In this document: in pieces, positions 30,523 through 62,069 of the stretch | Numbering within the stretch: position 1 is the first letter of the stretch | Layout: every line of letters begins with the position of its first letter | DNA from: Gammaproteobacteria bacterium | Lineage (GTDB): Bacteria; Pseudomonadota; Gammaproteobacteria; Eutrophobiales; Eutrophobiaceae | DNA length: 64,000 nucleotides | Direction of reading: 5' to 3' | NCBI GenBank assembly: GCA_026710545.1 | Contig: JAPOQU010000011.1 | Location: forward strand, 1,155-65,154 | Made by a program: the position numbers and the translations under genes | Notes under the pieces: model-generated | Told to the model about the DNA's origin: nothing | The model's input: only the letters and a program-made list of their open reading frames with translations | Database searches by the model: none

Positions 30523-31122
30523 ATGACAGAAAATAATTTTCAGGTAAGACTCGCAACAGCCTATCCGGGTGCACAACCAGTTCAGTCATCCAAAGGGACG
30601 ACATTAAAGGCCGAAATATCAACTGATCAAGGTCGTAAAGACGCATTTGTAAAATTAATCAGTATTGATGACATAGCCAGAGAAGCGCTTTGTGCAGTAT
30701 TGGCAAGGAAACTTCAACTTCCCATGTTGCAGCCCTATTATGTTCATGTTGATCCCAGTGTCTTAGGTGATTACCGTGCAGGAAATATTCATGACATAGC
30801 TTTTGGTCTTGAAGCTGAAGAGGCGCCCACATTTCGAGTAATCCATCAGTTGACGGAAGAAGAGATTTCAGGATGGAGTGATGTTTTACGCGTCGCAGTA
30901 TTCGATGAGTGGATTTATAATCGGGACAGAATTCCGACCAACCTGATATTTACTGGTAAAGGGCGTTTTCGATTGATTGACCACGATGAAGCTTTGCCAA
31001 ATTACGCGTCCCCAGATGCCTGTTCAAATGCACAGCTTTTACAACACCTGGCGCGCAACAAATCGGAAATAGAGTTGCATCAGATGCGGAGGAAGGCTTT
31101 TGAGAGTATTGAAGAATATTAG
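30523..31122 (+). CDS. HipA-like / PI3-4-kinase-fold mini-kinase, interrupted by an in-frame TAG (the frame continues to 31320)
   Basis: Catalytic-loop-like FDEWIYNRDRIPTNLIF and RLIDHDEAL. After the TAG at 31120..31122 the same frame stays open for 65 more codons, ending in TAATG shared with the next gene. Confidence 0.5.
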   Translation: MTENNFQVRLATAYPGAQPVQSSKGTTLKAEISTDQGRKDAFVKLISIDDIAREALCAVLARKLQLPMLQPYYVHVDPSVLGDYRAGNIHDIAFGLEAEEAPTFRVIHQLTEEEISGWSDVLRVAVFDEWIYNRDRIPTNLIFTGKGRFRLIDHDEALPNYASPDACSNAQLLQHLARNKSEIELHQMRRKAFESIEEY

Positions 31123-31319
31123 TCAGTAAATTGGGGTGAAATCTATAAGCTCCTGCTCCCGGATAACTTGCCAGGGGGCGCACCAATTTTCGACAAATTC
31201 ATACAATTTCTCAGTGTCCGTAGTGAACACATGCGTGCTATCATTACTCAAAGTCTGGGTATTAAACAACAAGAATTAAATCTTTCGATACCAGGCAAGA
31301 CCGTCAGAGAGGGGGACTA

Positions 31320-32165
31320 ATGTCAGCATCGTATCCAGAATTACCCGGTTACGGTTTTTCATGGAGGAGTATTCAGATCGAACCTGTCCCAGTCTCAGGT
31401 GAGAGGATAACTTTGGGAGCGATTGTTAAAGGAGACAACCAGGAATTGCTCGCTGCAAAAGTAGTTTCAAAACCTCATTTGAGAAAAATCTATGGCCGTG
31501 AATTCGGTGCTCGAATTGCAGAGGCTCTGAGTTTGTGTATCAACCATGCCGAAAAATATTACTCAACAAACCCACTGTCAAATAAGTGGTCACCTCCCCT
31601 GGACAGATTTTATGTCGGAGAATTGCATTCCTCCGTTGCTGAAAACATTGAGGAGGGTCTGTCAAGAGCGGCCAGGCAATCCTCCTCTTTCAGTGTTTCT
31701 CTTGAAGAGGAAAAAACCGGATCAAGCACAAGTCCCGCCGTGTCTGCACCCAAATCCTGGCAGAAAGCGATAAGGCAGGTCGTAACAGACGAACGAGAAG
31801 AATTCCTGAATTATTTTGAAAAAAGCGTACCAGTCCGGGACTCAGGCGTACCGTTAACATTCAGTTTTCTGTCCAGTAACTATGCTGCGCAGTTCGATGC
31901 AATTACAGAAACAAAACAAATCCAGAGAGTATTGGTTAGAGCCCAGAGTAAGCTATGGCAGCTCGATCGGCTCAGGGATGAGAGCGCCCTGATTCATCCG
32001 AAATTCTGTGAGTTGTTGCTGCAAATACCGGATAGTGATGAAACCTCTGAAGTCAGTGAATTTGTAGAGGAGTTGGATTACGAAGCCTCCAGAAGAGAGT
32101 TAGGTTTATTCTCTACTACTTCACCGGTCGATGCTGCAAGACATTTGATTGAAAAAGCAGCTTGA
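31320..32165 (+). CDS. hypothetical protein (the N-terminus is reminiscent of DUF3037), partner of the mini-kinase
   Basis: 281-aa ORF whose ATG overlaps the TAA of the extended kinase frame. The N-terminal pattern is WRSIQIEPVPVSGERITLGAIV. The DUF3037 assignment is from memory and unverified. Confidence 0.35.
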   Translation: MSASYPELPGYGFSWRSIQIEPVPVSGERITLGAIVKGDNQELLAAKVVSKPHLRKIYGREFGARIAEALSLCINHAEKYYSTNPLSNKWSPPLDRFYVGELHSSVAENIEEGLSRAARQSSSFSVSLEEEKTGSSTSPAVSAPKSWQKAIRQVVTDEREEFLNYFEKSVPVRDSGVPLTFSFLSSNYAAQFDAITETKQIQRVLVRAQSKLWQLDRLRDESALIHPKFCELLLQIPDSDETSEVSEFVEELDYEASRRELGLFSTTSPVDAARHLIEKAA

Positions 32166-32170
32166 GCACC

Positions 32171-32992
32171 ATGAAACCGGAAGACCATCCCCCTCAGGAG
32201 CCCGTATCCGACTTTGCCAGGGACTACAACAGGTACGTACTGGAAATAGCGGCGGAAATCGGAGGCGCTGAAGACAGCTATGGCCTGAATCCCTACCAGA
32301 GCGTGTTGTATTACCCGGCGCCGAAACCGGACGGCAACGTGTTCATCATGATCCACGGCGGCGGCTGGACCAGCGGATACAAGGAGTGGATGGCATTCAT
32401 GGCGCCGGTATTCAACCAGGCGGGTATCGGCTTCGTCAGCATCGGTTACAGGCTGGCCCCGGCCCACGTTTTCCCGGCAGGACTGGATGATTGCATGAGC
32501 GGGCTGAAATGGGTTTACGACAACATCGATAAGCTTAACGGCGACCGCACTCGCCTGTTCATATCCGGCCACTCCGCCGGCGGCCATCAGACCAGCCTTA
32601 TGGCTGTACGCAGGGACTGGCAGGAAAACTATGGCTTGCCCGTGGACGTCGTACGCGGTTGCCTGCCCGTCTCCGGCGTGTTCGACTTTCGCGAAGGCTC
32701 GGGCCTGTCCATGCGCCCGCGCTTCCTGGGCCCGGAGGGCAATGAGGATGCCGCCAGCCCCATCTGCAATATCCAGGGTACGCCACCACCGTTCTTCCTG
32801 TCCTGGGGCAGCAGGGACTTCCCCCACCTGATCACCCAGGCGCAGAAGATGGAACAGGCTTTACGCGCCGCAGGGGGTGAGACTACCAGCCTGGAACTTG
32901 AGGGCTGCGACCACCTGCAGGCCAACCTGGCCTGCGGCGACCCGGACGGACCCTGGGCGGGAAGGGTGATGGAGTGGATCAGGGGACATTGA
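32171..32992 (+). CDS. alpha/beta-hydrolase esterase/lipase-family protein
   Basis: Oxyanion motif HGGGW and nucleophile elbow GHSAGG. GC-rich like the core genes. Confidence 0.8.
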   Translation: MKPEDHPPQEPVSDFARDYNRYVLEIAAEIGGAEDSYGLNPYQSVLYYPAPKPDGNVFIMIHGGGWTSGYKEWMAFMAPVFNQAGIGFVSIGYRLAPAHVFPAGLDDCMSGLKWVYDNIDKLNGDRTRLFISGHSAGGHQTSLMAVRRDWQENYGLPVDVVRGCLPVSGVFDFREGSGLSMRPRFLGPEGNEDAASPICNIQGTPPPFFLSWGSRDFPHLITQAQKMEQALRAAGGETTSLELEGCDHLQANLACGDPDGPWAGRVMEWIRGH

Positions 32993-33029
32993 TACGTCCA
33001 TCACAGACTCCCGTATTCTGTACCTGGAA

Positions 33030-33130
33030 GCGCAGGACTGCGATGAAAACGGCAGCTGTCCGGTCGGCGGTGGCAATCTCAGTGCACGGCATGTCATCCA
33101 TGGCGTAGGCCCGCGCAAGGGAGAGGGGAT
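33030..33130 (+). pseudogene. macro-domain gene fragment 1 (internal piece)
   Basis: Encodes QDCDENGSCPVGG..GNLSARHVIHGVGPRKGEG, alignable by eye to codons ~54-96 of the intact macro gene at 42148..42672. Confidence 0.7.
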
Positions 33131-33170
33131 TGATAGTATCTCTTTGCAGCACCGTCCCTGGTTCATCGAG

Positions 33171-33605
33171 TTAAAAAAATAATGCCGGGTTTACGTTGAA
33201 ACGTTTACTTAATGCTTCGATATGATTACGCGTAAACCTGCGTTCACCGTGTAAAATTCTGGATACCAGTGATTTACTCCCAATCTCAGGCAGGTCTGCA
33301 ACGCCGAGTTTATGTTGTTCCATAATGACTTTAAGCGTTGCTATGCCGCTGTCGAGTTTTTCAATTCGGTCATTAAAAGACTTAAACTCGGGCGATTTAT
33401 CCTCCCAGCGAGCGATAGAAGCAGAAAGGACGTCAATGAGTGGTTGCTGGTTGTCATAGTCCTCTATTAATTCGTCCATGAGGGCCAATGCCTGTGCGTA
33501 ATCAGCCTCATTGCTGATGTGGCTGATAAAAGGCGCCTGGTTGAATAGTTCAAAGGCATGTTCTTTGATGGCAGCAAATCCCATATCAGCTTGCCTGTTT
33601 TGCAT
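33171..33605 (-). CDS. higA: HigA-family HTH antitoxin
   Basis: C-terminal XRE-type HTH (LGVADLPEIGSKSLVSRILHGERRFTRNHIEAL). It lies downstream of and overlaps higB. The start is uncertain (33605 or 33584). Confidence 0.75.
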   Translation of the reverse strand: MQNRQADMGFAAIKEHAFELFNQAPFISHISNEADYAQALALMDELIEDYDNQQPLIDVLSASIARWEDKSPEFKSFNDRIEKLDSGIATLKVIMEQHKLGVADLPEIGSKSLVSRILHGERRFTRNHIEALSKRFNVNPALFF

Positions 33606-33897
33606 AGCGTCTGGAGAGCTTGTCATATTCAGCATGATTGACAATGTGTTTTACGTACATACGATTATCATTAAACCCAATGAAGGCGATCAAACGCAGG
33701 TTGTTTCCTCCTATATCGATGACCCACCATTTATCCTTATGCTTGAAGTTGTCCAGTGACGGAAATACTTTATTCAAATCTTCCGGACGTTTGAACTCAC
33801 CTTTGCGCAGAACTTTATAAGTCCTTTCAATCGCTGCTGCGTCATTCGGATATTTGCTTGCGGCAGCATTAAAAATCTTCCTGGATATAATGTGCAA
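33586..33897 (-). CDS. higB: HigB-family mRNA interferase toxin
   Basis: MHIISRKIFNAAASKYPNDAAAIE...WVIDIGGNNLRLIAFIGF..MYVKHIVNHAEYDK is the typical HigB pattern. Confidence 0.8.
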   Translation of the reverse strand: MHIISRKIFNAAASKYPNDAAAIERTYKVLRKGEFKRPEDLNKVFPSLDNFKHKDKWWVIDIGGNNLRLIAFIGFNDNRMYVKHIVNHAEYDKLSRRYAKQAS

Positions 33898-34057
33898 TTA
33901 GAGTTCCCTGTATTTTGAGTTTCCTTTTTGTCAACTATAGGTGAGAGAACGCTCTTTTGTCAAGAAAAAGAAAATCATTGAATCAACGGGGTCCGACTCG
34001 GTTGATTTGCTTGACTCCGGGGACGGATAAAGTGGCATTGATGTCGTCTTTGCAATA

Positions 34058-34572
34058 ATGCAGATGCTATTCAATGATAAAACCCTGGAGCTTGCCGAAG
34101 GCGATATAACAGATCTCAACATCGACGCCATCGTCAATGAGGCAAACTCCTCGCTCATTTTAGGCGCAGGAGTGGCCGGCGCCATTCGCGCCAAAGGCGG
34201 TCCCAGGAATGCGATGAAATCGGCGGCTGTCCGGTAGGCGGCGCGGTGATCACCACCAGCGGCAATCTCAAGGCGCGGTACGTGATCCATGCCGCCGGCC
34301 CGCGCAAGGGAGAAGGGGACGAGGAGGAAAAACTCAGGAACGCCACACTGAGCAGCCTAAGAGTCGCAGATGAGAACGGCCTGAAAAGCATCGGGTTCCC
34401 GGCCATCAGCACCGGTGTATTCGGGTTTCCGATTGAGCGCTGCGCGGAGATCATGCTTTCCGCTACGATGGATTACCTGCAGGGAGAAACCGGGCTGGTG
34501 AGGGTGGTTTTCTGTTTGTATGGGGTGGAGGCGTTTGGGGTTTTTGAGGGGGGTTTGAAGGAGTTCCAATGA
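34058..34572 (+). pseudogene. macro-domain gene copy 2, frameshifted
   Basis: Near full-length paralogue of 42148..42672. About 10 nt are deleted near 34206 (GGTCCC^AGGAATGC versus GGCCCTGCCATCCAGCAGGAATGC), which breaks the frame. The distal part reappears as ORF 34246..34572. Confidence 0.85.
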
Positions 34573-34869
34573 AGCCGCAAAAACTTGCCGAATACGCCGG
34601 TATGATTAGAAAAGCGGCGCTGACCAGCTAAATCTCTGCTTTCGATTTCAGGACGACGATGTCCTGTATGTATTGATTTTCGCTGAAGCTCCGGAGGCGA
34701 ATGTCCCATTAGTTTGTCAATGGATACCACATATTACGTCTCGACCAGTGTCTGACTGGCATAGGGGATGTTCGAGATCATCTACAGTGCCTCTGTCTAT
34801 TTCTTGCCCCTGTGCTCCAAGAACAAATAATATTTACTACTCTGCTGTTTAATGTCTTATTATGTCTTA

Positions 34870-34913
34870 AATTTATTCAATAAATTAATGTAATGTCTAT
34901 TTAGTTACATTAA
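34870..34913. promoter_or_regulatory. two AT-rich palindromes in the promoter region of the small-ORF/XRE operon
   Basis: AATTTATTcAATAAATT (34870..34886) and TTAATGTAA-N11-TTACATTAA (34885..34913). ATGTCTTA direct repeats lie at 34852 and 34862. Confidence 0.4.
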
Positions 34914-34963
34914 ATTATGATTAATAATGTGCCTACAGTTTAAATCAATCAGGAGGCAAAACT

Positions 34964-35179
34964 ATGAAAATCAGCGACCACGCAGTATTGCGGTACCTGG
35001 AACGTTTCAAGGGTATTGACGTGGAAGAAACACGCCGATCCCTTGCCAGGGTAATGGACACACCCAGAATGAACGACGTAATAGAATTTGCTGGTCAGGC
35101 CCGTTGTAAGGTTAAGAAAGCCGATGGCATCTTTTGTGTTCAGGATGGCACACTGACCACATGTTATCCCAGCAACTAA
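34964..35179 (+). CDS. small hypothetical protein, possibly DUF4258-like toxin
   Basis: 71 aa. The N-terminal ISDHAVLRYLERFKGIDVEE resembles the HA..R..eRgI signature of DUF4258. This is from memory and low confidence. Confidence 0.35.
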   Translation: MKISDHAVLRYLERFKGIDVEETRRSLARVMDTPRMNDVIEFAGQARCKVKKADGIFCVQDGTLTTCYPSN

Positions 35180-35217
35180 ATTATATAACAGTAATCAACT
35201 ATGGACATAAGCACACT

Positions 35218-36597
35218 ATGAAAATCAACCCGGCACAATTAAAGTCATTGCGTATTCAGAGCGGACTGTCTCACAAGCAGCTTTACGAAAAGTCCAAAGT
35301 CTCAGAGCGGCAGATTTCTCGAATCGAGTCCTCTGGCACATACTATGATGCGCGCGAATACACGGCAGAGCGTCTTGCCCGTGCACTGGGCGTAGCGGTG
35401 GATACGCTTGCCGACAACGTGACAGTTGACTCTGGCCAGGTGGACGGCACAGTTAGGAATTACCAAAGTATCCATCCTAAACGTCTCAAAGATCTACGCA
35501 CACGGAAGAAGTTCTCCCGTCGCAAACTTGCAAAAAAATCCGGACTTTCAGAAAAACAGATTAGCCGAGTTGAAACCTCAGAAACAAATGTGCCGGTGCG
35601 CATGAATACCATGATTAAGCTGGCTTCTGCGCTGGGAGTTGAGGCCGAAATGTTGCTTGACGACCCCTCAACTCTTGACCCGTTACCGGTGCCCCCCTCA
35701 CAGGATGTCCAACTCAGTATTAAGATCAGTCCTCAGGTTCGTCTTGCCTACGACTTGGTGAAGCATCGTTATGGTCCAAGTCAGAAGGACATCATCAATC
35801 TAGCGCCTCTTCTTTTCGTCCTGTTGGCCGAAGGCAGTCTTTCCTGGCGCCGGCAGTGGCTCGAGGAAACAAAAGCTGCTATGGAACGTTTGGAACAGCT
35901 TACTAGCGAGCGCGACATGTTTAACTCCGAAGAACTGGATTTGGAATGGGATGAGAGTTTCGAGGCAGAGCAGGAATCAATAAAGAAAAAAGAACTTTTA
36001 GGTGACGAAATCCTGTCTGGGAAAGGCTACTGGGATTCCTCTGATCATATGGAAACCCCGTTTCTGGATTACGTGACCAGACTCACGAAAGAACTCAATA
36101 TATCTGTTATGGTCGATTCCATTTTGGGTAATGATGTGAAGAACATGATTAATGAAGATTTTGGTCCTGGAATTGACCTCAAAGAGAAGCGGAGAGACCA
36201 ATTTATACGACAGCATGGTGAAATGCCCGATGATACAAACCAATTCAATAGCCCACATATATCATGGAAGCTGGCTGAAAGACATACTCAAAATGATAAT
36301 GTGCTTGGTGACATTTTCAATAATTTCGATATTGATTGGTGCATTATTAACTATCTCATTTGCCCGGATTCTCTGATTGAAATATCAGGCAAGTCCTTAG
36401 AGGGGCTGTTTGCCCTGATCAGGGGTGACGTGCGCGTGCCGCAGATCCCCTCAGATCTGATGACAGAGACGGCAAAAGACAAACGTATTGAGTGGCTTGA
36501 AAGCAGGATGAGTACTGAGACACAGCAGTTAGCTGCACGCTACCGGGAGCTTTTTGCAAAAGATTATGGATGTGATCTTAATGGTGACACACGATGA
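35218..36597 (+). CDS. XRE-family protein with two tandem HTH domains and a ~300-aa C-terminal domain of unknown function
   Basis: Two copies of the pattern LK.LR...GLS.KQL..KS.vSE.QISRiEsS (about residues 6-40 and 95-130). The start is taken at MKINPAQLKSL. Confidence 0.7.
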   Translation: MKINPAQLKSLRIQSGLSHKQLYEKSKVSERQISRIESSGTYYDAREYTAERLARALGVAVDTLADNVTVDSGQVDGTVRNYQSIHPKRLKDLRTRKKFSRRKLAKKSGLSEKQISRVETSETNVPVRMNTMIKLASALGVEAEMLLDDPSTLDPLPVPPSQDVQLSIKISPQVRLAYDLVKHRYGPSQKDIINLAPLLFVLLAEGSLSWRRQWLEETKAAMERLEQLTSERDMFNSEELDLEWDESFEAEQESIKKKELLGDEILSGKGYWDSSDHMETPFLDYVTRLTKELNISVMVDSILGNDVKNMINEDFGPGIDLKEKRRDQFIRQHGEMPDDTNQFNSPHISWKLAERHTQNDNVLGDIFNNFDIDWCIINYLICPDSLIEISGKSLEGLFALIRGDVRVPQIPSDLMTETAKDKRIEWLESRMSTETQQLAARYRELFAKDYGCDLNGDTR

Positions 36598-36775
36598 AAC
36601 AAAGAACGAATATAAGCGACCATGCAGTATTGCGGTACCTTTCGTACTGTATGTAGGCAATCTGGACTTTGCTGATGGCCCCAGGCAATTCTCAAGTGCT
36701 CCCGGACTAACATCCCTTCTCTCCTGGAGTGAAGGGCAGGATGAGAGGGAAAAAACGCTACCGGAGTTCCTTGCT

Positions 36776-37972
36776 CTAGTATACGGTTTTCCAGTCGTCG
36801 CCGGGCATGATGCGTCGCATGAAGCCGTCAAACAGTGGTACCGTGAACGTTGTGTCACCATGGCTGGGACTCCAGATCATTCCTTTGGCGATAAGCTGGC
36901 TGCGGACGGGAGCCAGCGACGTCACTCCGCGCTCCAGTACGTCAGCGATGAAACCTGAACGGTGAGACCCTGGGCCCAATTCCGCCATAGCGCGCAGGTA
37001 ACGCTTTTCGGAAGGCGTCAGTCGATCAAAGCGTACGCGAAAGAAACCTTCGTCCAATGCGGCAACCGCGCACCGAGACGCTATTTCCACGTCTTTCAGT
37101 GTGATGGGGGATGACTCGGCGATATCCCATGCCTGTTTGCCCCATTCCTGTAAAAAATAAGGATAACCCTGTGTTTGCGAAATGATGTAATCCAGCGCAT
37201 CTGTGTCTATGCTTTCACCTTCGGCCTCAGCGGGTCTGCTGACGGCAATACGCGCCGCAGCCGGAGCTAATGGGCCTACCTCAGGAAAATCGAACAAGCG
37301 TTCGGCATAGGATTTCGCTTTTCCCATGCGCCCGCGCAACTGCGGCAACCCCGCTCCTGCGAGTACCACCGGCAAGCGACGCTGGGCGGTACGATGCAGC
37401 GCCGTAATCAAGGCCGCCAATTGGTCTTCATCGACGTATTGCAACTCATCAACAAAAAGCGCCAGACCCGTCCCGGCGCTCGCGGCTGCCTGGCCGGACA
37501 CTTCAAGCAGCGCCTGCAAGTCCAGTTCCAAATCACCATTGTCTGCAAGTCCAGGTTCTGAGTCGAAATCCAGTCCAACTTCAATGTCGTTATATTTAAA
37601 CTTTAACGCAGTGGCGAAGCCGGCCAACCCGCGCAGGGCTCTTTGTGCCAATTCCCTTGCCTGTTCAATAACAGACAAGCGCAATAACGCTCGACGTAGT
37701 TGCGGCGCAAGAATGGCAGGCAGGGAACGTCCCTCAGGCGCCTCAATACGGAGAGTCTGAATAGCGGAAGCCTCAGCATCGTCACACATCTTGTCCAGCA
37801 GTACGGTCTTTCCGACACCACGCAGCCCCACCAGTAGCAGACTCTTGGATGGCCGCCCAAGCCGCGTACGTTCCAGGACGATACGCATCCGTTCCAGTAG
37901 TTCATCACGTCCAGCCAATTGCGGAGGTGGCGTGCCGGCGCTTGGTGTAAAGGGGTTTCTGACAGGGTCCAT
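36776..37972 (-). CDS. AAA_16/Orc1-Cdc6-like P-loop ATPase
   Basis: FTPSAGTPPPQLAGRDELL..., Walker A GLRGVGKTVLL and Walker B LALFVDELQY. Confidence 0.65.
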   Translation of the reverse strand: MDPVRNPFTPSAGTPPPQLAGRDELLERMRIVLERTRLGRPSKSLLLVGLRGVGKTVLLDKMCDDAEASAIQTLRIEAPEGRSLPAILAPQLRRALLRLSVIEQARELAQRALRGLAGFATALKFKYNDIEVGLDFDSEPGLADNGDLELDLQALLEVSGQAAASAGTGLALFVDELQYVDEDQLAALITALHRTAQRRLPVVLAGAGLPQLRGRMGKAKSYAERLFDFPEVGPLAPAAARIAVSRPAEAEGESIDTDALDYIISQTQGYPYFLQEWGKQAWDIAESSPITLKDVEIASRCAVAALDEGFFRVRFDRLTPSEKRYLRAMAELGPGSHRSGFIADVLERGVTSLAPVRSQLIAKGMIWSPSHGDTTFTVPLFDGFMRRIMPGDDWKTVY

Positions 37973-37989
37973 GGCAGAATTATAGCTAA

Positions 37990-38026
37990 TTTAGCAAGTT
38001 TATGGAAATTTCATAAACTTGCTAAA
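37990..38026. promoter_or_regulatory. perfect 15-bp-arm inverted repeat immediately upstream of the ATPase start
   Basis: TTTAGCAAGTTTATG-gaaattt-CATAAACTTGCTAAA, located 18 bp from the start codon at 37972. Confidence 0.5.
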
Positions 38027-38185
38027 TTCGATCAAATCGGCTGTTCAGGTAAATTTCCTCAAGAATTTCTATAAATTCGTCATCAAATATTGACAATAGA
38101 TCAAGCAGCGCAGTCCCGCGTTTTTCAGGCAACGTATGGACTACAAGATTACCGTCTTTGTTACAACTGTGTTTTTCCTGATGTG
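38022..38185 (-). pseudogene. vapB antitoxin remnant (frameshifted, 5'-truncated)
   Basis: The nucleotide stretch GACAATAGATCAAGCAGCGCAGTCCCGCGTTTTTCAGG matches GACAATGCATTAAGCAGCGCAGTCCCGCGATTTTCAGG of the intact vapB (40921..41175). It translates to ...HTLPEKRGTALLDLLSIFDDEFIEILEE. Confidence 0.7.
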
Positions 38186-38234
38186 ACCAAGTGGCGGTTC
38201 TGCCCCTGTTTTCTTGCTGGTCGACTTAAAATTG

Positions 38235-38278
38235 TGCCAATATCGTGCCAGTATTATGCCAGTATCGTGCCATCTATG
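38235..38278. repeat. four direct repeats with 11-bp period upstream of the Fic-like gene
   Basis: TGCCAATATCG / TGCCAGTATTA / TGCCAGTATCG / TGCCATCTATG. Confidence 0.6.
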
Positions 38279-38293
38279 TGTAGTTGATACGCC

Positions 38294-39175
38294 TTGCCAG
38301 GCAGGCTTGAAGGAAACACCTATTCGCTCATGGACACACAGAACCTGATTGAAGCCGGCAGGCTCGCCGAAGGAAAAGACCCTTTTGAGGCGACGATGAT
38401 CCTGAACCACAAACGCGCCATAGAGATGTTGGTTCAGGAGGTGGAATACGTGGATTTCAACATGTATACCTTCCTGAGCCTGCACGCCGTATTGTCGGAC
38501 AGTTTAATGAGCGACCCGGATGACAGCGGGCGCTTGCGGAACAAGATCGTTGAGATAGGCGGGTCTGTTTACATGCCGTTGGCGGTCCCCCAACAGGTAG
38601 AGCAGTATTTCAGGCTGATTCTGGACAAGGCAAAGGCCATCGACGACCCGTTTGAGCAGGCGTTTTTCCTGATGGTTCATATCCCGTACCTGCAGCCTTT
38701 TACCGATGTCAATAAGCGGGTGGCGCGGCTGGGCGCCAACATCCCGCTGATCAAAAACAGGCTGTGTCCGTTATCGTTCGTTGGCGTCCCCAAAAAAATC
38801 TATATTGAAGGGATGCTGGGCGTGTACGAACTGAACCAGCCCGACCTGCTGATGGACGTGTTCGTCTGGGCCTATGAACGGTCATGCCAACGGTACAATC
38901 TCTCAAAGGACCCTGCCGTCAAGCCCGATCCGTTCAGGCATAAATACAGGCCGATAATTGAATCAGTCATAAGCCGCATCGTCAAGGACAGGCTTGCATC
39001 CACTGCGGAATCCATTGCAAGCCTGACAGAAGGCCGTGTCCCTGATGAAGATATCGACAGGTTCATTGCTCTGGTTGACGATGAATTGCGCCGCCTGCAT
39101 GAGGCGGCACTGGCGCGATACAGGCTTCGGGTACCGGAATTTATCGAGTGGAAACAGATGCAGTCGGCGCGGTGA
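38294..39175 (+). CDS. Fic/Doc-family protein with a degenerate active-site motif, probably N-terminally truncated
   Basis: QPFTDVNKRVAR sits at the position of the Fic motif HPFx(D/E)GNGRxxR and resembles the Doc variant HxFxDxNKR, but with Gln for the catalytic His. The ORF begins at a TTG inside the LEGNTYSL helix. Confidence 0.6.
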   Translation: MPGRLEGNTYSLMDTQNLIEAGRLAEGKDPFEATMILNHKRAIEMLVQEVEYVDFNMYTFLSLHAVLSDSLMSDPDDSGRLRNKIVEIGGSVYMPLAVPQQVEQYFRLILDKAKAIDDPFEQAFFLMVHIPYLQPFTDVNKRVARLGANIPLIKNRLCPLSFVGVPKKIYIEGMLGVYELNQPDLLMDVFVWAYERSCQRYNLSKDPAVKPDPFRHKYRPIIESVISRIVKDRLASTAESIASLTEGRVPDEDIDRFIALVDDELRRLHEAALARYRLRVPEFIEWKQMQSAR

Positions 39176-39438
39176 TCACCGGCAGCGGCAACCTCAAGGT
39201 GCGGTACGTCATCCATGCCGTCGGTCCGCACAAGGGAGACGGGGACGAGGAGGAAAAACTCAGGAACGCGACACTGAACAGTCTGAAAGTCGCAGATGAA
39301 AATGGCCTGAAAAGCATCGGGTTTCCGGCCATCAGCACCGGTGTATTCGGTTTCCCGATTGAACGCTGCACGGAGATTATGCTTTCCAATACGATAAGCT
39401 ACCTGCAAAAAGAAACTGGCTCTGGTAGTATCCAATGA
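39163..39438 (+). pseudogene. macro-domain gene fragment 3 (3' two-thirds), abutting the Fic-like gene
   Basis: Encodes AVITGSGNLKVRYVIHAVGPHKGDGDEEEKLRNATLNSLKVADENGLKSIGFPAISTGVFGFPIERC... Confidence 0.85.
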
Positions 39439-39854
39439 CATAGTTTCTGGCAAATATGGTCATTCTTCAGCAGATAACAGTCATCCTGTTATTCAAACTT
39501 GCCGGAGCATCAGTATTTTTCTGGCGATATGGTATCATCCATCAGGAGTTAGGATATTCTTTGCTGATACCGATGATAGGTGGTAAATCAATTTTTAATT
39601 TTTTTGTGAAATACGGCTACACTCTTTAGGTGAGAATTTCGCAGGTCACGAGAGATAACCTTCTAAAGAAGGTAGGTTGTATGATACTGATTACCAAAAT
39701 TGTTGTTGAAACACCAAAGACAACATACCGAAGGTTCTTTCAAAACATAATAGTTGCATGACGGACGGAAATTCCAGCGTCAATTCACAAATTTCTGAAC
39801 AGAGCTACGAATAAAAGATGGAATGAGTCTGATGCTAAAGCTGAAATAGCTTAC

Positions 39855-40256
39855 TTGGTAAATAATTTTGATCCTGCGCAATTATTTCATATTGAACAGG
39901 CGATTAATCATGGCATTTCGTTGGTTACTGAATGGCTCCCCAAGTATAAATTTAAGGATTGGAAAGTTACAGAAGCAAAGGGAGATACAGTTACCTCACA
40001 GATGAAGAAAGATCGAGCTAAAAAAATTGCCCAAGTACTCGGAAATGCAAAAAAGTGGCACTCACATGGACGCGGCATTTCAATGAAAGATCTATCAGGT
40101 CCAGAAATTAAGTTAAAAATCGACAACTTCGGAGATGACGAAAATTTAAACCAGTTGATAAGACATTATCATGGTCTGTGTGTTGATTATTATACAAATA
40201 AAAGTGGTATTCGAGGTTATATCCATTCACCACAGGGTATGAGGAGGGTGTTATGA
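39855..40256 (+). pseudogene. probable C-terminal fragment of an SDH-family Clp-fold serine protease gene
   Basis: The segment KKIAQVLGNAKKWHSHGRGISMKDL...NLNQLIRHYH resembles the C-terminal third of that family (from memory). The catalytic N-terminal part is absent. Confidence 0.4.
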
Positions 40257-40447
40257 AAAAAGAAAGTCAACTCAAAAATAAGCAACAGGAAAATCCTTAT
40301 GAAAAGGTTTTTGATGATGCTAACCGCTTGCTCAAGCAGTTCAGCGACTTGGAATACCTGCATAATATTCCTGATATTCATAAGCCTGAGCGCCCAGGCA
40401 TCCCATTCCCGTACGGCAGCAATGCTAAAAGACCTTATAATTTTTAA
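40253..40447 (+). CDS. small hypothetical protein
   Basis: 64-aa ORF with an ATGA overlap onto the preceding ORF. No motif recognised. Confidence 0.3.
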   Translation: MKKESQLKNKQQENPYEKVFDDANRLLKQFSDLEYLHNIPDIHKPERPGIPFPYGSNAKRPYNF

Positions 40448-40460
40448 ATAGGGAATCAAA

Positions 40461-40517
40461 TGCCCGGTCGGCGGCGCGCTGCTCACCGCTGGCGACAATC
40501 TCAAGGCGCGTCACGTC
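40461..40517 (+). pseudogene. macro-domain gene fragment 4 (57 nt)
   Basis: Encodes CPVGGALLTAGDNLKARHV. It ends at and overlaps the vapC stop codon. Confidence 0.7.
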
Positions 40518-40924
40518 CAGTCCACCCAATCCTCAAATGACAACCCCTTTATCCGGTTAAATTCTTTAGTGTTGTGGGTGACGAGTATTACATCTTCTGC
40601 AAGGGCATGGCAGGCAATCCACAAATCATTCGCGCCGACAGGCATGCCGCTTTCCTTAAGGTAGGTAAAATGAGCGGCATATTGTTCACATAAAGTACGA
40701 TTAACGTGATAAATCACGGGAACCTGCCTGACTAATTGACCCAGTTGGCGCAATACCCTGTGTTTGCGCGTACTGCGCTCTGCTCCTTTAAGCATTTCCG
40801 CATAGGTAAAAAAAGACATGCATAGCTGGGCATCCTCTCCCAGCTTGTTGAAGCGTTGCGCTACTGACACAGGCCTGTTCTTGAGCAGGTAAATCAGGAT
40901 ATTCGTATCCAGCATATACCTCAT
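40511..40924 (-). CDS. vapC: VapC PIN-domain ribonuclease toxin
   Basis: MLDTNILIYLLKNRP..., a 137-aa PIN pattern. It overlaps vapB by 4 nt. Confidence 0.85.
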   Translation of the reverse strand: MRYMLDTNILIYLLKNRPVSVAQRFNKLGEDAQLCMSFFTYAEMLKGAERSTRKHRVLRQLGQLVRQVPVIYHVNRTLCEQYAAHFTYLKESGMPVGANDLWIACHALAEDVILVTHNTKEFNRIKGLSFEDWVDWT

Positions 40925-41175
40925 AAGTCTTCCCTTTCCTGCACTGTAGGCTGAGTCCGATAATTTTCTTCAAGTATTTCAACAAACTCATCATCAAACG
41001 CTGACAATGCATTAAGCAGCGCAGTCCCGCGATTTTCAGGTATTGCATGGATCACAAGGTCGCCATCTCTATTCCGGGTAATTTCAACTTGTGAAGTATT
41101 CAATCTGAATTCCTGCGGAATACGTACCGCCTGGCTATTGCCGTTCATGAATACCCGGCTATTTAATGTAGTCAT
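40921..41175 (-). CDS. vapB: VapB (AbrB/SpoVT-type) antitoxin
   Basis: FMNGNSQAVRIPQEFRL is the swapped-hairpin motif. It lies directly upstream of vapC. Confidence 0.8.
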   Translation of the reverse strand: MTTLNSRVFMNGNSQAVRIPQEFRLNTSQVEITRNRDGDLVIHAIPENRGTALLNALSAFDDEFVEILEENYRTQPTVQEREDL

Positions 41176-41271
41176 CTAAATCTCTTGTGTGTACACTTCT
41201 GTGTGTATTCTAGGTAGGAAACGATCAAAACACAAGTAGCTTGTTCGGTGTTTTGACCGGATTTATGTAAA

Positions 41272-41362
41272 TGGAATCGCTGGACTGCGACCACCTGCAG
41301 GCCAACCTGGCCTGCGGGGACCAGGACGGACCCTGGGCAGGCAGGGTGAAAGAGCGGATCAG
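41272..41362 (+). pseudogene. duplicated 3' fragment of the esterase gene
   Basis: GACTGCGACCACCTGCAGGCCAACCTGGCCTGCGGGGACCAGGACGGACCCTGGGC closely matches 32897..32958 at the 3' end of the intact esterase gene. Confidence 0.8.
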
Positions 41363-41424
41363 GCCTGTTAAGCCGTCCTCGCTACCATGCGTTTCTCAGC
41401 TTAGTACCTGTGTTTTCATATCAT

Positions 41425-41829
41425 CTACTTTCTATTCCTGCCAATAATGAAAGTCGAGGCAAGACCAATAACCACACTGCTTCCTATGACCATGGCCGCC
41501 CATTGCAACCCTGAAATTGCAATATAACCGCCTGTTAAAATTCCCAGTGAACAGATAATTAACGCAAAGATATGCCCTCTCTTGGCTTCTTTGTATTCAT
41601 TGGAGATGATCAGTTGTTCCGTATCATGGCGATGGCCGGTTTCTCTTTCCGCCATTGCGATAATACGCTCAGCGGCGCCCGGCGTTATCTGGTTATACTT
41701 TTCCAGCGTATCAGGTGGAGGAATAGGGCCACTGAACTGCTCCGTGACCTGAATAACTTGCTGTTTATTTTGTCGTTGTACGGTTGACTGTCTTTTTTTG
41801 ACAGGTGCTTTACCTTGTCGTCCTCTCAT
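41425..41829 (-). CDS. DUF2335-like membrane protein
   Basis: PPPDTLEKYNQITPGAAERIIAMAERETGHRH followed by two TM helices. The family call is from memory. Confidence 0.55.
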   Translation of the reverse strand: MRGRQGKAPVKKRQSTVQRQNKQQVIQVTEQFSGPIPPPDTLEKYNQITPGAAERIIAMAERETGHRHDTEQLIISNEYKEAKRGHIFALIICSLGILTGGYIAISGLQWAAMVIGSSVVIGLASTFIIGRNRK

Positions 41830-42004
41830 GCTCGTACTTCCCTGTCGCGGTTCTTATATCATTACCTATGCGTTCCCAATCATGGTAAAGCGCTTCTGCT
41901 GCGGACTGTTGCAAAAACCTTTCTCTCATCTTTGATGACGTATCCGGATGTAACTGCAATACAGATGTTGCTCCTCGCAACCAGTTCTTTAATTTTTCGC
42001 CCAT
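41810..42004 (-). CDS. small hypothetical protein
   Basis: 64-aa ORF overlapping the start of the DUF2335-like gene. No motif recognised. Confidence 0.3.
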   Translation of the reverse strand: MGEKLKNWLRGATSVLQLHPDTSSKMRERFLQQSAAEALYHDWERIGNDIRTATGKYEHERTTR

Positions 42005-42147
42005 AACAATAAGTTGATTTCAACTGTCCGTACCTTAGTAATTATACCAATGCTTCAATCATATTCAATAACCACTACGGCCACTGGACAGAACGGACAA
42101 CGAAGTGGATAAGGGGGCGCAGATGTAATATTCTGGAAGAAGGCAAA

Positions 42148-42672
42148 ATGCAAATACAAATCAACAATAAAACCCTGCAACTCGCCGAAGGCGATATCAC
42201 CGAACTCCACACCGACGCCATCGTCAATGCGGCCAATACCTCGCTCATATTAGGCGCGGGAGTGGCCGGCGCCATTCGCGCCAAAGGCGGCCCTGCCATC
42301 CAGCAGGAATGCGATGAAATCGGCGGCTGTCCGGTAGGCGGCGCGGTAATCACCGGCGGCGGCAACCTCAAGGCGCGGCACGTCATCCATGCCGTCGGCC
42401 CGCGCAAGGGAGAAGGGGACGAAGAGGAAAAACTCAGGAACGCGACACTCAACAGCCTGAGAGTCGCAGACGAAAACGGCCTGAAAAGCATCGGGTTTCC
42501 GGCCATCAGTACGGGCGTTTTTGGTTTTCCGATTGAACGCTGCGCGGAGATCATGCTATCCGCCACGATAGATTACCTGCGGGGAGAAACCGGGCTGGTG
42601 AGAGTGGTTTTCTGTTTGTATGGGGAGGAGGCGTTCAGGGTTTTTGAGGGGGTTTTGGAGAAAATCCATTAA
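42148..42672 (+). CDS. stand-alone macro-domain protein (YmdB-like O-acetyl-ADP-ribose deacetylase family), the intact copy
   Basis: [42 protein letters not shown] and GFPAISTGVFGFP. Confidence 0.85.
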   Translation: MQIQINNKTLQLAEGDITELHTDAIVNAANTSLILGAGVAGAIRAKGGPAIQQECDEIGGCPVGGAVITGGGNLKARHVIHAVGPRKGEGDEEEKLRNATLNSLRVADENGLKSIGFPAISTGVFGFPIERCAEIMLSATIDYLRGETGLVRVVFCLYGEEAFRVFEGVLEKIH

Positions 42673-42677
42673 ATGGA

Positions 42678-44492
42678 TTGGGCTCTATTGATGTACTATC
42701 ATTGAGAACCGTGAACTATTATTCAGAAAATGCGCCGAGTCTGGTCTCAAAGTATAATTCCCTGAAGCCCGAATCTCTGCACGCGTCCTGGTTCAGTTTA
42801 ATTCCAGATGACCCGGGCATTGCCCTAGACATAGGCGCTGGCAGTGGGCGCGATGCATACTGGCTGGCTGAAAAAGGCTGGGACGTGATTGCCGTTGAGC
42901 CATGCAGGGAGTTTCGGGAACTGGCCAAACCGCGGGAACTGGCCAAACCGGATAGTCATGCTAACGTCATATGGCAGGATGATGAACTGCCCGAACTGAA
43001 ATCCCTCCGTACTGCCGGTCATCGATTCAATTTGATATTGTTGAGCGCCGTATGGATGCATGTATTGCCGAACAAGAGAGAGCGAGCATTCCGTATCATC
43101 AGCGAACTACTGGCGCCAGGAGGAATTCTGGTATTCACGCTACGTTACGGCACTGATGAGCGGGAAAACCTTGACAGAGGTTTCCATCCGGTCAGTAGTG
43201 GAGAACTGGAAAAATACGCTAAACAGCGTGCTTTGGCGCAGGTGTTTTATGAAGGATCAGAGGACCATCTGGCCAGGTCAAACGTTCGCTGGGAGACTCT
43301 GGTCTTTCAATTGCTGGACGATGGCACGGGCAGCCTGCCGCTGTTGCGCCACATCATCGTCAATGACGACAAGTCAGCCACCTATAAGTTGGGTTTGTTG
43401 CGCGCCTTGATACGTATAGCGGAAGGGGCACCGGGGATGGTGACCAAGCGTACCGATGATACTGTTGAGATACCCTTTGGATTAGTCGGGTTATACTGGA
43501 TCAAGCTCTATATGCCCCTGGTGCTGAAACACGGCCTTATCCAGTCTCCAAGCCATAAACCATTGGAGAAAAAAGGGCTTGGTTTCGCAAAAGAACATTT
43601 CTATCAGTTAGCGAGGTTTTCGTCGTTTGACCTGCGAATTGGCGCAATGTTTGACGCTGAGCACACCCGCCCCGTAGTTGGCGCAATCAGGGACGTTTGT
43701 AAAAATATTCAGGATATGCCTGCGAACTACATTACTTACCCCGGCAGAAGCGATCAGGTTTTTAACTGTGAAAGGCAAACGGTACGTTCAAAAAACGACA
43801 AGCCCTGGCGCATCGATAAGCAAACTCTGGCTGATTTTGGAGTCTTCGTAATACCAGCCAGCGTATGGCAATGTCTGGGACAATATGCCTGCTGGTTGGA
43901 ACCGGTTATCATCAACGAGTGGGCAAGGCTGATGCAGGGATACGATATAAAAAATAATGATTACAAATTCGGTGTCCCGCAATGGGCCATTTCGGGTCGG
44001 CACATCGCCGACCAGAGTCCTGATTCCAGGAAGGATTATTGCGAGGCGTTGCAATGGGAGGAAGGTCACCGTGATACCGAACCGGTACGCAAACGAGTGC
44101 AGGAGCTTCGGCAAAACGGCGAATCTGTCTATTGTGTCTGGACCAACGCAAGGCTGAAAGAGCGTTATGAGGTTGATCATTGCTTCCCCTGGAGTCGATG
44201 GTACAACAACGATCTCTGGAATTTGATGCCTGCGAGCACAACGGCTAACGGGAAAAAAAGAGAGAAGTTGCCGTCAGCGCCTTTATTGCATCACTCCCAA
44301 GGCCGTATTACAGACTGGTGGAACTCGGCTTATATTAACGGCAGGATGAAAGAACAATTCCTGCTGGAAGCCGCATCCACTCTACCTTTGGTGGATGATG
44401 GGATGATGGATTTGACTGCCATTTTTGAAGCCGTGATGCACCAGCGTGCAAAATTGAAAGCGAATCAACAATTAGCGGAGTGGTTGGGCTGA
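42678..44492 (+). CDS. fusion protein: class-I SAM-dependent methyltransferase + unknown central domain + C-terminal HNH nuclease
   Basis: SAM motif I is LDIGAGSGRDAYWLAEKGWDVIAVEP. The HNH motif is YEVDHCFPWSRWYNNDLWNLMPASTTANGKKREKLP. The apparent TTG start lies 5 nt after the macro stop. Confidence 0.7.
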   Translation: MGSIDVLSLRTVNYYSENAPSLVSKYNSLKPESLHASWFSLIPDDPGIALDIGAGSGRDAYWLAEKGWDVIAVEPCREFRELAKPRELAKPDSHANVIWQDDELPELKSLRTAGHRFNLILLSAVWMHVLPNKRERAFRIISELLAPGGILVFTLRYGTDERENLDRGFHPVSSGELEKYAKQRALAQVFYEGSEDHLARSNVRWETLVFQLLDDGTGSLPLLRHIIVNDDKSATYKLGLLRALIRIAEGAPGMVTKRTDDTVEIPFGLVGLYWIKLYMPLVLKHGLIQSPSHKPLEKKGLGFAKEHFYQLARFSSFDLRIGAMFDAEHTRPVVGAIRDVCKNIQDMPANYITYPGRSDQVFNCERQTVRSKNDKPWRIDKQTLADFGVFVIPASVWQCLGQYACWLEPVIINEWARLMQGYDIKNNDYKFGVPQWAISGRHIADQSPDSRKDYCEALQWEEGHRDTEPVRKRVQELRQNGESVYCVWTNARLKERYEVDHCFPWSRWYNNDLWNLMPASTTANGKKREKLPSAPLLHHSQGRITDWWNSAYINGRMKEQFLLEAASTLPLVDDGMMDLTAIFEAVMHQRAKLKANQQLAEWLG

Positions 44493-44551: not shown

Positions 44552-45394
44552 CTACTTGTGACAAGCTAAACAAACCTTTGTCTGTCCATATAAATCATCA
44601 ATATCCAGCGGGTCGTAATCAGGCCGTAGTGGATTAGGTTGTATTTTGGCGCGCATACGTAGAAGACGTTGTTCGTGTTCCTGCTGGATTTGCTGTACCC
44701 GCTCGGGTTTTTCCAGTTCTTCCAGTGGTTCGCCTTGACTCCAAGTGAATGGGGAACCTTGGTCCAGAGAATTTTTTTCGTAAGCTTTGGCTTCCTTAAA
44801 TGCTTCGGGATGGTGTTCTTTCAATCGGACCCATTCGATTTTCTGCTGGAAAAAACAGAATGTACACCCGCTACGGGTTCGCCATGCATAGTATGTCGGC
44901 AAACCAAGGCCCGCTCCGTCAAGAATTTCAAGCACGCCAAGCTTATCAATGCCTGTTTCCCTAAAAGGTAGTCGTACTATAAGCCGCTCGTTTTTGGATG
45001 CATAGCCTTCGCGATATTCCTCATCCGAACGGATAGCGACATAGCTGTAGATCGTTTCCCCGTCTTCAAGCTTGGGGCGCAGCCAGTGTTCGAATGGCCG
45101 CAGTTTCAGTTGTCTGGTACACCAGCGGCTTTGCGGTGACGGCAGAAAATCATTGTACTGCTTAAGCCAGAAGTCGAATTCCCGGTCTGGATTCAGTCGT
45201 AAGATCGGCTGCCCCAGAAAACCTTCCAGGCGCCCGAGATATTCATACACTTCCGGCAGTTCTTTACCGGTGTCCGTGAAAAAATATTCAATATCCAGTT
45301 CCGGGTGATGTTGCCGCATATATACGGCCAAGGCCGCACTGTCTCGACCACCTGACAAGCCCAACACATGCCGCTCATTGGCAACGATACTCAT
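44552..45394 (-). CDS. PP-loop ATP pyrophosphatase of the PAPS-reductase family (DndC/SspD/BrxP-like)
   Basis: PP-loop LSGGRDSAA, RWCTRQLK, the Cys cluster SGCTFCFF and a C-terminal CLAC. Its ATG overlaps the stop of the upstream ATPase (ATGA). Confidence 0.75.
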   Translation of the reverse strand: MSIVANERHVLGLSGGRDSAALAVYMRQHHPELDIEYFFTDTGKELPEVYEYLGRLEGFLGQPILRLNPDREFDFWLKQYNDFLPSPQSRWCTRQLKLRPFEHWLRPKLEDGETIYSYVAIRSDEEYREGYASKNERLIVRLPFRETGIDKLGVLEILDGAGLGLPTYYAWRTRSGCTFCFFQQKIEWVRLKEHHPEAFKEAKAYEKNSLDQGSPFTWSQGEPLEELEKPERVQQIQQEHEQRLLRMRAKIQPNPLRPDYDPLDIDDLYGQTKVCLACHK

Positions 45395-48774: not shown

Positions 48775-48997
48775 TATCGGCTTGGTTTCTCTACAGGGAC
48801 TCTATCGTAATTGGAGAATATGTACGGAAGCGTCCTTTCTTCTTGATATTGAAATTGCGAACAACTTATTTCAAGTTCAATTTTAATGTCTGGGATATGT
48901 TATAGTCAATCTGTGATCGCAGGTTTTTCTCGCGTTTTGCATATGGCGTCCTGGCTCTGTCCAAAGTAGGGTTTTATATTCTACCTGATTGAACTAA

Positions 48998-52332: not shown

Positions 52333-52477
52333 ATTTGGGACAACCATAAATTACATGAGCGTTTTAAATTTATGGTTGTCCCAAACTCTCATGATCAGAT
52401 CTCTGCACACCCCGACAGCATGTAACTCAGCTTGCTGGGGACAGAATTAATTCTGTCCCCGAATTTACACAGCAAAT
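52333..52477. repeat. hairpin + 99-bp conserved element (copy A)
   Basis: The hairpin is GGACAACCATAAATT...AATTTATGGTTGTCC. It is followed by a 99-bp unit (52379..52477) that recurs at 61971..62069 with 2 mismatches and contains GGGGACAGAATTAATTCTGTCCCC. Confidence 0.85.
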
Positions 52478-55288: not shown

Positions 55289-55418
55289 ATTCCTGTCAGC
55301 CGGCACTCCGTACGCCGGCTTCCTCCTGTTATTTCCATCAGCCTTGAATTTTAGCAGGATTTTTGGGATATTACCCCAAATTTCCAGGAACAGGTATGGA
55401 TATGGATAAAGGACAATC

Positions 55419-61934: not shown

Positions 61935-62069
61935 ACTGCGCCGGCTGGTTGTTGAATATTTTTACTCTGACCCCAAACTCTCATGATCAGGTCTCTGCAC
62001 ACCCCGACGGCATGTAACTCAGCTTGCTGGGGACAGAATTAATTCTGTCCCCGAATTTACACAGCAAAT
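61906..62069. repeat. perfect 21-bp-arm hairpin + 99-bp conserved element (copy B)
   Basis: The arms are GGGGTCAGAGTAAAAATATTC (61906..61926, inside the last mutY codons) and GAATATTTTTACTCTGACCCC (61954..61974). The 99-bp unit follows at 61971..62069. Confidence 0.9.

Follow-up and report, generated by a model that had tools for sequence, protein, structure and literature searches.

In the minimal mobile elements of Neisseria (Saunders & Snyder 2002, as quoted in PMC3787668), variable whole-gene cassettes are described, in the quoted part, as lying between conserved flanks, with no mobility genes, and as being exchanged by homologous recombination in those flanks. In Pseudomonas aeruginosa, the build-up of core defence hotspots, e.g., cDHS1, has been called enigmatic, and a combination of transduction and homologous recombination that leaves no scars has been proposed (PMC10250203). 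Here, we analyzed a stretch of 64,000 nucleotides (nt) from an uncultured gammaproteobacterium (assembly GCA_026710545.1, contig JAPOQU010000011.1, positions 1,155 to 65,154), the whole of which is referred to as the window. It contains a locus bounded by an esterase gene on the left and, on the right, by a macro-domain (macro) gene with an adjoining methyltransferase-HNH (MT-HNH) fusion gene. The locus is a hotspot of a known kind; its unusual part is the legible scars derived from both flanking genes. We consider it probable (roughly 0.6) that the esterase/macro/MT-HNH locus is a recombinase-free hotspot, the scars of which come from imported alleles that were stacked by homologous and illegitimate joins and then eroded. 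Such a hotspot would exchange alternative cargo, for the most part toxin-antitoxin pairs of types II and IV along with defence-like genes, between lineages of an uncultured gammaproteobacterial clade.

Like the minimal mobile elements, the locus holds different content between the same flanks, has no mobility genes at 29-50 kb or in the other large open reading frames (ORFs) of the window, and has flank alleles with a non-vertical history; by the quoted part of the definition, it is such an element. Whereas clean replacement is described there, the alleles here appear stacked, with diverged fragments of flank genes between the cargo modules, and the host is not Neisseria but an uncultured gammaproteobacterium. 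The locus shares with cDHS1 (PMC10250203), and with the hotspots of defence islands in Escherichia coli (PMC10121019), flanks made of core genes, variable size and content, defence and toxin-antitoxin cargo, and no recognisable mobile element. The transfer proposed for cDHS1 would leave no scars, whereas this locus contains explicit ones, and its cargo consists mostly of small toxin-antitoxin pairs, with an Ssp module in a neighbouring slot.

A scan of one genome per species yielded eight close relatives (L001-L007 and L009), all uncultured Gammaproteobacteria with macro proteins 84-94% identical to that of the window, and homologues of the esterase, the two clusters of which comprise 92 and 175 member sequences, gave six more loci (in the range L161-L167), for a total of 14 related loci. 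Because L161/L162 and L165/L166 are near-duplicate pairs, these loci are not all independent. The basal locus consists of the esterase gene, a 19-nt spacer, the macro gene, and the MT-HNH gene; the esterase gene is directly followed by the macro gene in L001, L002, L003, and L007, and the whole region takes up ~3.3 kb in L002, compared to ~20 kb in the window. The esterase gene is kept in 14 of 14 relatives (78-92% nucleotide identity), and the interval between it and the macro gene ranges from the 19-nt spacer to several kb, with at least eight kinds of cargo. A first reading of the window made from its sequence alone (hereafter, the sequence-only reading) had called the region an iterated insertion hotspot; the variability of this interval supports that call, and the alternative cargo found in related genomes refutes a fixed arrangement. 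The cargo of the relatives is as follows:

L009: VapBC between esterase and macro; macro gene split by IS21
L006: VapBC, then TacAT, between esterase and macro
L005: ATPase stub, palindrome, VapBC, and truncated HigA between esterase and macro; full SDH protease after macro
L004: truncated VapB, HigA, truncated HigB, macro stub, DUF2335 remnant, 64-aa (amino acid) ORF, esterase-tail stub, and TacA between esterase and macro
L161/L162: DUF2442 pair between esterase and macro
L163: DUF2442 pair, macro stub, VapBC, esterase tail, and TacA between esterase and macro
L001: AbiE, then a macro stub, after macro
L007: AbiE, macro stub, and small-ORF/dual-HTH pair after macro
L165: no macro and no MT-HNH; helicase/HATPase/PLD genes and SspDCB

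Ssp modules also occur after the macro gene in some relatives. The insertion in L009 is an IS21-family element (IstA/IstB, L009 10435-12994) that cuts the macro gene at ~nt 430; copies of IS21 are found in L005, L009, and L164 only, those of L005 and L164 being near the hotspot. Chromosomal toxin-antitoxin spots have been described as small, with high turnover and with the toxin often eroded first, and have been tied to Tn3-type transposases and res-like palindromes (PMC13617665). The truncation of HigB, TacT, and VapC in the relatives resembles this erosion; unlike in those spots, neither a Tn3-type transposase nor a res-like palindrome was found at the junctions here.

Within the window, self-BLASTN of the intact macro gene with 200-nt flanks returned exactly four extra matches, every one on the plus strand (macro coordinates and indels were taken from global alignments). 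Together with the flanks and the cargo, these copies give the following order of features:

32162..32992, plus strand: intact esterase gene (alpha/beta-hydrolase; Pfam BD-FAE/Abhydrolase_3), which forms the conserved flank on the left of the hotspot
33019..33033, no strand assigned: 15-nt remnant of the cassette end upstream of vapB, abutting macro stub A; 14 of its 15 nt match the L005 VapBC cassette exactly at the right end of the latter
33032..33128, plus strand: macro stub A (BLASTN 73.9%, one gap; macro nt 156-273), followed by the GGGGA/ATTGATAGTAT esterase-end remnant
33171..33897, minus strand: HigBA toxin-antitoxin cassette, with HigA at 33171-33644 (matching PDB 5ifg, E=5.6e-33) and HigB at 33586-33897 (PF09907, E=1.5e-24)
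~34017..34057, plus strand: esterase-tail remnant and basal spacer, 5' of macro copy B; in L001-L003 and L007, the end of the esterase gene and the spacer align with 34025-34057
34058..34572, plus strand: macro copy B, a full-length pseudogene, 87% identical to the intact copy, with a 10-nt frameshifting deletion
34573..34712, plus strand: downstream flank of copy B, homologous to the post-macro sequence of L001 and L007 (AbiE-type allele)
34964..36597, plus strand: small ORF (71 aa) and dual-HTH XRE-type protein (487 aa; Pfam HTH_3/HTH_31, twice)
36776..37972, minus strand: AAA_16 (STAND-like) ATPase gene (Pfam AAA_16, E=1.5e-17)
37977..38037, no strand assigned: AT-rich near-perfect palindrome of ~58 nt (inverted repeat I1), immediately upstream of the AAA_16 start codon
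38049..38165, minus strand: internal vapB fragment, 80% identical to 40961-41058 and 75-82% to vapB of L004, L005, L006, and L009; the scar of a deleted VapBC cassette
38294..39175, plus strand: Fic-domain gene (Pfam Fic; PADLOC SoFic/PDC-S04)
39162..39426, plus strand: macro stub C, open frame (BLASTN 86.8% over 39162-39419; macro nt 189-452)
39855..40256, plus strand: C-terminal fragment of an SDH/ClpP-like serine protease gene, a 133-aa ORF with the C-terminal ~112 residues of the protease (tblastn to L005 11172-11507, 38%, E=8e-22; the full L005 protein, PF01972, follows the macro gene there)
40461..40517, plus strand: macro stub D (BLASTN 82.5%; macro nt 181-237)
40511..41175, minus strand: VapBC toxin-antitoxin cassette, with VapC at 40511-40924 (Pfam PIN) and VapB at 40921-41175 (MazE_antitoxin)
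41282..41363, plus strand: esterase 3'-end stub (esterase nt 741-822), 90.2% identical to 32902-32983 and closest to the L002 allele (91.4%)
41425..42004, minus strand: DUF2335 membrane-protein gene (Pfam DUF2335) and 64-aa ORF, a cargo cassette between VapBC and the intact macro gene; 89% identical to L004 2953-3242, with remnants also in L005
42104..42147, plus strand: degenerate esterase-tail remnant and type-1 spacer, directly 5' of the intact macro gene; 84% identical to L005 8580-8623 (esterase end and spacer)
42148..42672, plus strand: intact macro-domain gene (174 aa; Pfam Macro, E=4e-42)
42678..44492, plus strand: S-adenosylmethionine methyltransferase-HNH (MT-HNH) fusion gene, conserved right flank (Pfam Methyltransf_23/11 and HNH_4)

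Copy A carries an 18-nt in-frame deletion at macro nt 189-206. The match of copy B (34052-34568, 87.1% over 527 columns) spans macro nt 1-525, with the 10-nt deletion at nt 144-156. The match of stub C is gapless, its homology running on to 39426 by comparison with relatives, and stub D has no indels over macro nt 181-237. The intact gene with four same-strand partial copies, all of which align to it at the nucleotide level, had been recognised in the sequence-only reading, as had the near full-length copy B with a frameshifting deletion of ~10 nt; its order of cargo (HigBA; small ORF, dual-HTH, ATPase, and Fic genes; protease fragment; VapBC) is backed by domain, structure, and tblastn matches. 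Its identity estimate of ~85-90% is too high for copy A (only ~74%); the end that it gave to copy C, 39438, lies beyond the homology, which stops near 39426. The items of its feature list were all found again, and the list lacked the esterase 3' stubs, the vapB fragment at 38049-38165, the 15-nt vapB-end remnant, and the DUF2335/64-aa ORF cassette.

Codon comparison of stubs A-D to the intact macro gene gave a synonymous divergence (dS) of 0.33-0.51 and a ratio of nonsynonymous to synonymous divergence (dN/dS) of 0.20-0.27 (copy B: dS 0.34, dN/dS 0.20; stub C: dS 0.40, dN/dS 0.20); for the macro orthologues of other species, dS is 0.29-0.56 and dN/dS is 0.10-0.18. Apart from two deletions, the stubs retain an open frame. 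Taken together, these values and the open frames indicate that the stubs were functional genes while they diverged, that their divergence is of the size found between species, and that their truncation was recent. Recent local tandem duplication of the macro gene is ruled out by dS and dN/dS, in agreement with the sequence-only reading, and the stubs are unlikely to be ancient pseudogenes.

Each stub keeps neighbours that are found beside the macro gene in another genome. For example, the L007/L001-type allele is matched (81-83%) by copy B together with the 140 nt downstream of it and the small-ORF/dual-HTH pair: L001 9968-10676 (83.5%) and L007 9968-10663 both align with window 34025-34712, and the pair is 81% identical to L007 12451-14349, which lies downstream of the macro gene there. 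Stub C followed by the protease fragment is the order of the L005-type allele, and the intact macro gene followed by the MT-HNH gene is the same order as in L002, L003, and L006. The window thus strings together four or more versions of the locus, each of them truncated. Stubs of the macro or the esterase gene also occur in 8 of the 14 relatives, one of them being the IS21 split: macro fragments are present in L001 (nt 7-299), L007 (nt 81-132), L004 (nt 448-482), and L163 (nt 1-131). Esterase tails were counted in 6 of the 14 relatives by scan; those 3' of cargo are in L006, L009, L163, L165, and L166 (by scan) and in L004 (by eye). The macro stub of L163 is 77% identical to the full copy of the same genome, compared to 89% for the L009 allele.

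Comparison to the closest relative, L002, shows a mosaic of identities: 96.7% at 28.0-28.3 kb, 93.1% for the DUF4143 ATPase gene, 91.6% for the esterase gene, and 92.6% from 50.26 kb onward, whereas the macro/MT-HNH block is only 77.6-81.7% identical. Judging from these identities, the resident macro/MT-HNH block is itself a replaced allele. The cargo is more alike between genomes than are the core genes: VapBC is 94.3% identical to that of L009, compared to 85.8% for the esterase gene, and HigA/HigBA is 94% identical to the L004/L005 copies, compared to 87.5% for the esterase gene. The macro gene of L161 is a mosaic. L165 and L166, both from one sample (ERZ25766727), are 98% identical from the esterase gene through TacA, with identical esterase proteins; they diverge within the esterase-tail stub, and the cargo beyond is wholly different, one having SspFGH-like genes and SspDCB, the other a spacer and the MT-HNH gene with no macro gene. 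This pair is a strain-level polymorphism of the hotspot in one community, and the switch looks like a recent crossover in the esterase-tail stub. As its second option, the sequence-only reading had proposed that whole alleles were imported by recombination in homologous flanks, with a stub left by each event; this fits the divergence of the stubs, the purifying selection on them, their neighbours, and the replaced macro/MT-HNH allele.

The same comparisons bear on a purely vertical history, in which one long ancestral array with old local duplications of the macro and esterase genes eroded separately in each lineage, with no repeated import. Such a history would account for junctions shared between genomes (the vapB upstream end joined to HigA in L004/L005, and the esterase tail joined to TacA in L006/L163/L009), as well as for the widespread erosion, which has truncated AAA-ATPase genes in addition to the toxin genes. 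We consider it unlikely, because the dN/dS of the stubs implies function for most of their separate history, and four or five functional macro paralogues side by side are not to be expected. Furthermore, the stubs of different genomes are not orthologous to each other, genomes resemble each other more closely in cargo than in the core flanks, divergence from L002 is far greater in the macro/MT-HNH block than in the flanks, and the closest relatives, L002 and L003, are in the empty state.

No integrase, transposase, or resolvase domain, and no tyrosine recombinase domain (IntI of integrons), was found among the 55 window proteins scanned (nearly all non-nested ORFs of at least 150 aa), and for these proteins the statement of the sequence-only reading that the window holds no recombinase is upheld. 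Nor does the hotspot of the window have a transposase, terminal inverted repeats, or a short target-site duplication of fixed length; the only clear insertion-sequence event is that of IS21 in L009. Junctions were read where at least one parent sequence was known, and they share no motif. Pairs of the attC consensus (RYYYAAC...GTTRRRY) number 0 at 30-51 kb on both strands, compared to 3.8 expected from shuffles, in a scan of the consensus and not of a structure model; no boundary hairpins were found at the cassette ends; and the best candidates for dif/pdif-like (XerC/XerD) sites have 6-9 mismatches in 22 arm bases, none of them at a junction. The search of the junctions for attC-like or recombinase-site motifs that the sequence-only reading had suggested was therefore negative. 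The palindrome at 37977-38037 was considered as a junction repeat and rejected, since it is found only in the window and in L005 (8660-8715, perfect there), and occurs once, where the AAA_16 gene starts; it probably serves as a promoter or operator. Beside it in L005, the AAA_16 gene survives only as its first few codons.

These results weigh on another explanation, which was also the first option of the sequence-only reading: repeated site-specific integration of small non-autonomous cassettes, with a recombinase acting in trans on an att site over the esterase 3' end and/or macro nt ~156-189, so that tandem accretion would leave att-like stubs. In its favour, all stubs are directly oriented and sit between cargo modules, VapBC in L006 is flanked on both sides by a perfect 28-nt repeat of the esterase tail, the switch point of L165/L166 falls in an esterase tail, and the left ends of macro stubs A, D, and C (nt 156, 181, and 189) cluster within 33 nt (P ~0.04 for any three of four). 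The cluster of three of four breakpoints seen in the sequence-only reading is thus real in the window; it is weakly significant, and it is not seen in the relatives, the macro left ends of which (nt 1, 7, 81, and 448) indicate that nt 156-189 is no general insertion site. The segment is GC-rich, with repeated CGG/GGCGG units, and the cluster may reflect a sequence prone to slippage and illegitimate joining. The esterase gene is stubbed as well as the macro gene, and the module boundaries show no fixed att core: the esterase tails vary from ~8 to 82 nt, the macro stubs end at many positions that differ by genome, and the stubs are 74-90% identical to the resident copy, with no identical core. 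Moreover, the position of the 3'-type macro stubs, upstream of the intact gene, is on the wrong side if an element restores a 3' end, and neither the window nor most of the related loci yielded a recombinase. The locus resembles the tandem accretion of integrase islands at the 3' ends of tRNA or protein genes, as well as integron arrays, in that partial copies of the target in the same orientation punctuate the cargo; unlike in those systems, no integrase, fixed att core, or attC was found, and the stub ends are variable with 10-26% divergence. Site-specific integration is, therefore, improbable.

Homology-facilitated illegitimate recombination, a process known from laboratory transformation, combines a homologous anchor with an illegitimate join at short microhomology; recipient DNA is usually lost in the process. 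It was reportedly described in Acinetobacter by de Vries and Wackernagel in 2002 and in pneumococcus by Prudhomme et al. in the same year. The term occurs in PMC6382021. The locus may resemble the outcome of this process in that foreign DNA would be placed by a homologous gene with no recombinase, with junctions of 0-5 nt of microhomology; the difference is that repeated natural stacking with partial duplicates of the anchor gene, which is not documented there, is here our reading of the locus. What follows on the pathway of recombination, on how the DNA came in, and on the order and direction of the events is our inference. DNA from a related lineage would arrive with its own version of the locus. 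At one end, it would be fixed by homologous recombination in a conserved flank; at the other, it would be joined illegitimately, inside or beside the resident macro gene or the esterase 3' end, so that part of the resident allele would survive and alleles would be stacked rather than replaced. Small later deletions would then trim DNA that is not under selection, often to the stop codon of a retained gene.

The junctions may be the products of such joins. Their overlaps are of 0-5 nt, e.g., GGGGA where macro nt ~270 meets the esterase end, and TGGAA where the vapB upstream end meets esterase nt ~741. The last two codons and the stop of vapC are supplied by stub D (the protein ends in DWVDWT here, compared to DWVD in relatives), and the last four codons and the stop of the fic gene lie within stub C. 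Several junctions fall exactly at the end of a retained ORF, which fits deletions that trim to what selection keeps. The junctions also bear on an assembly artefact, in which the assembler would have concatenated the versions of a hypervariable locus carried by strains living side by side. In favour of this, the relatives are metagenome-assembled genomes, and L165/L166 show that strain variants of the locus co-exist in one sample. However, assemblers make their joins at long identical repeats, and the sequences that meet at these junctions have only 0-5 nt in common; the copies, 74-88% identical, are cut at different points; ORFs cross the junctions (vapC and fic end in macro stubs); and comparable stubs are found in several independent assemblies. 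An artefact of this kind is very hard to credit.

Several points weigh against the stacking of imported alleles. No donor allele more than 90% identical to any stub was found, so that import is deduced from divergence rather than observed, and the junctions with both parents known are too few for microhomology statistics. The 5' part of the gene is missing from each of stubs A, C, and D, and a model with one step per stub needs extra deletions. A single ordered history of events for the window was abandoned, because models anchored on the left and on the right fit equally. The perfect direct repeat of the esterase tail around VapBC in L006 would also suit site-specific or single-crossover insertion, and the cluster of left ends is accompanied by the deletion of copy B that ends at nt 156 and the deletion of copy A that starts at nt 189. 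There is also a slight chance that the segment made of esterase tail, spacer, and macro 5' end serves as a portable homology handle, such that a toxin-antitoxin or defence cassette between two diverged copies would loop out as a circle via RecA and, once transferred, re-enter any genome with an esterase-macro junction by a single crossover. If true, this would be a recombinase-free, homology-addressed cassette system, integron-like in function with no integrase, and the stub arrays would be its normal product rather than accidents.

Beyond the esterase gene on the 5' side lie a HipA_2-like kinase gene, a gene of unknown type, and an AAA_14/DUF4143 ATPase gene; the first two (30523-32165, the second coding for 281 aa) stand between the ATPase gene and the esterase gene, and are found elsewhere only in L163 (83% nucleotide identity). 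On the 3' side, the MT-HNH gene is followed by SspD (PADLOC E=2e-135) and SspC (E=0) of the phosphorothioate system, and then by a cysteine desulfurase gene, which is transcribed divergently within the Ssp module (44552-50203). No SspB (DUF4007) or SspE/FGH-type partner was seen within the window. The module is missing in L001-L006 and L161-L163, where the MT-HNH gene directly joins the sequence of window 50258; in L007, L009, and L165, PLD/HATPase/helicase genes adjoin SspD. Depending on the genome, the Ssp module (44.5-50.2 kb) is present or absent, as is the HipA_2-like pair (30.5-32.2 kb); the window therefore holds several adjacent variable slots.

The remainder of the window carries a HipA_C kinase gene at its start (24-1058), a gene for an RTX-repeat (HemolysinCabind) protein (3333-5306) with internal diverged DNA repeats (3590-4788), and a second AAA_14/DUF4143 ATPase gene (17701-19104) near tRNA-Arg (16046); counting also that at 29141-30289, the window has several PDC-S01-type ATPase genes at scattered positions. 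A 98-nt direct repeat, 98% identical, is located at 52334-52477 and 61905-62069, ~9.6 kb apart, with a different hairpin before each copy and a GGGGACAGAATTAATTCTGTCCCC hairpin inside each; it looks like a small intergenic repeat element, and housekeeping genes (argininosuccinate lyase, AsmA, MutY-like) lie between the copies. A TraG/TraD-like coupling-protein gene and a VirB11/T2SSE-type ATPase gene occupy 53633-56417, and a TrbM-family gene adjoins them in L161-L163; the conservation of this set in relatives suggests that a conjugative element may have left it behind as a fixed remnant.

The intact macro protein is matched by the NCBIfam models for ADP-ribose-binding protein and O-acetyl-ADP-ribose deacetylase, in all cases under the curated cut-offs. 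An exact-protein look-up returned no record of it, and a scan of JGI metagenomes with it gave a best match of 75% identity and no further close relatives. Proteins 56-79% identical to this 174-aa protein are found in metagenome-assembled genomes of Planctomycetota, Desulfobacterota, Nitrospinota, KSB1, and Asgard archaea (L010-L160); an identity this high across distant groups is unusual, and suggests wide horizontal spread of the macro gene itself. In the remaining ~150 loci beyond the clade, the neighbours of the window macro gene were not found beside its homologues. BLASTN of the VapBC and HigBA cassettes against plasmids gave only weak matches (66-73%) to generic HigB/PIN genes, and hence no evidence of a plasmid source.

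How recombinase-free hotspots of defence and toxin-antitoxin genes build up is an open question. No new kind of machinery is revealed by this locus. Its flank-gene pieces are diverged, recently truncated, and accompanied by neighbours from other genomes, and would, therefore, provide a readable record of the import of whole alleles across species-level divergence and of their stacking, the mechanism of which becomes testable by population genomes or by transformation.

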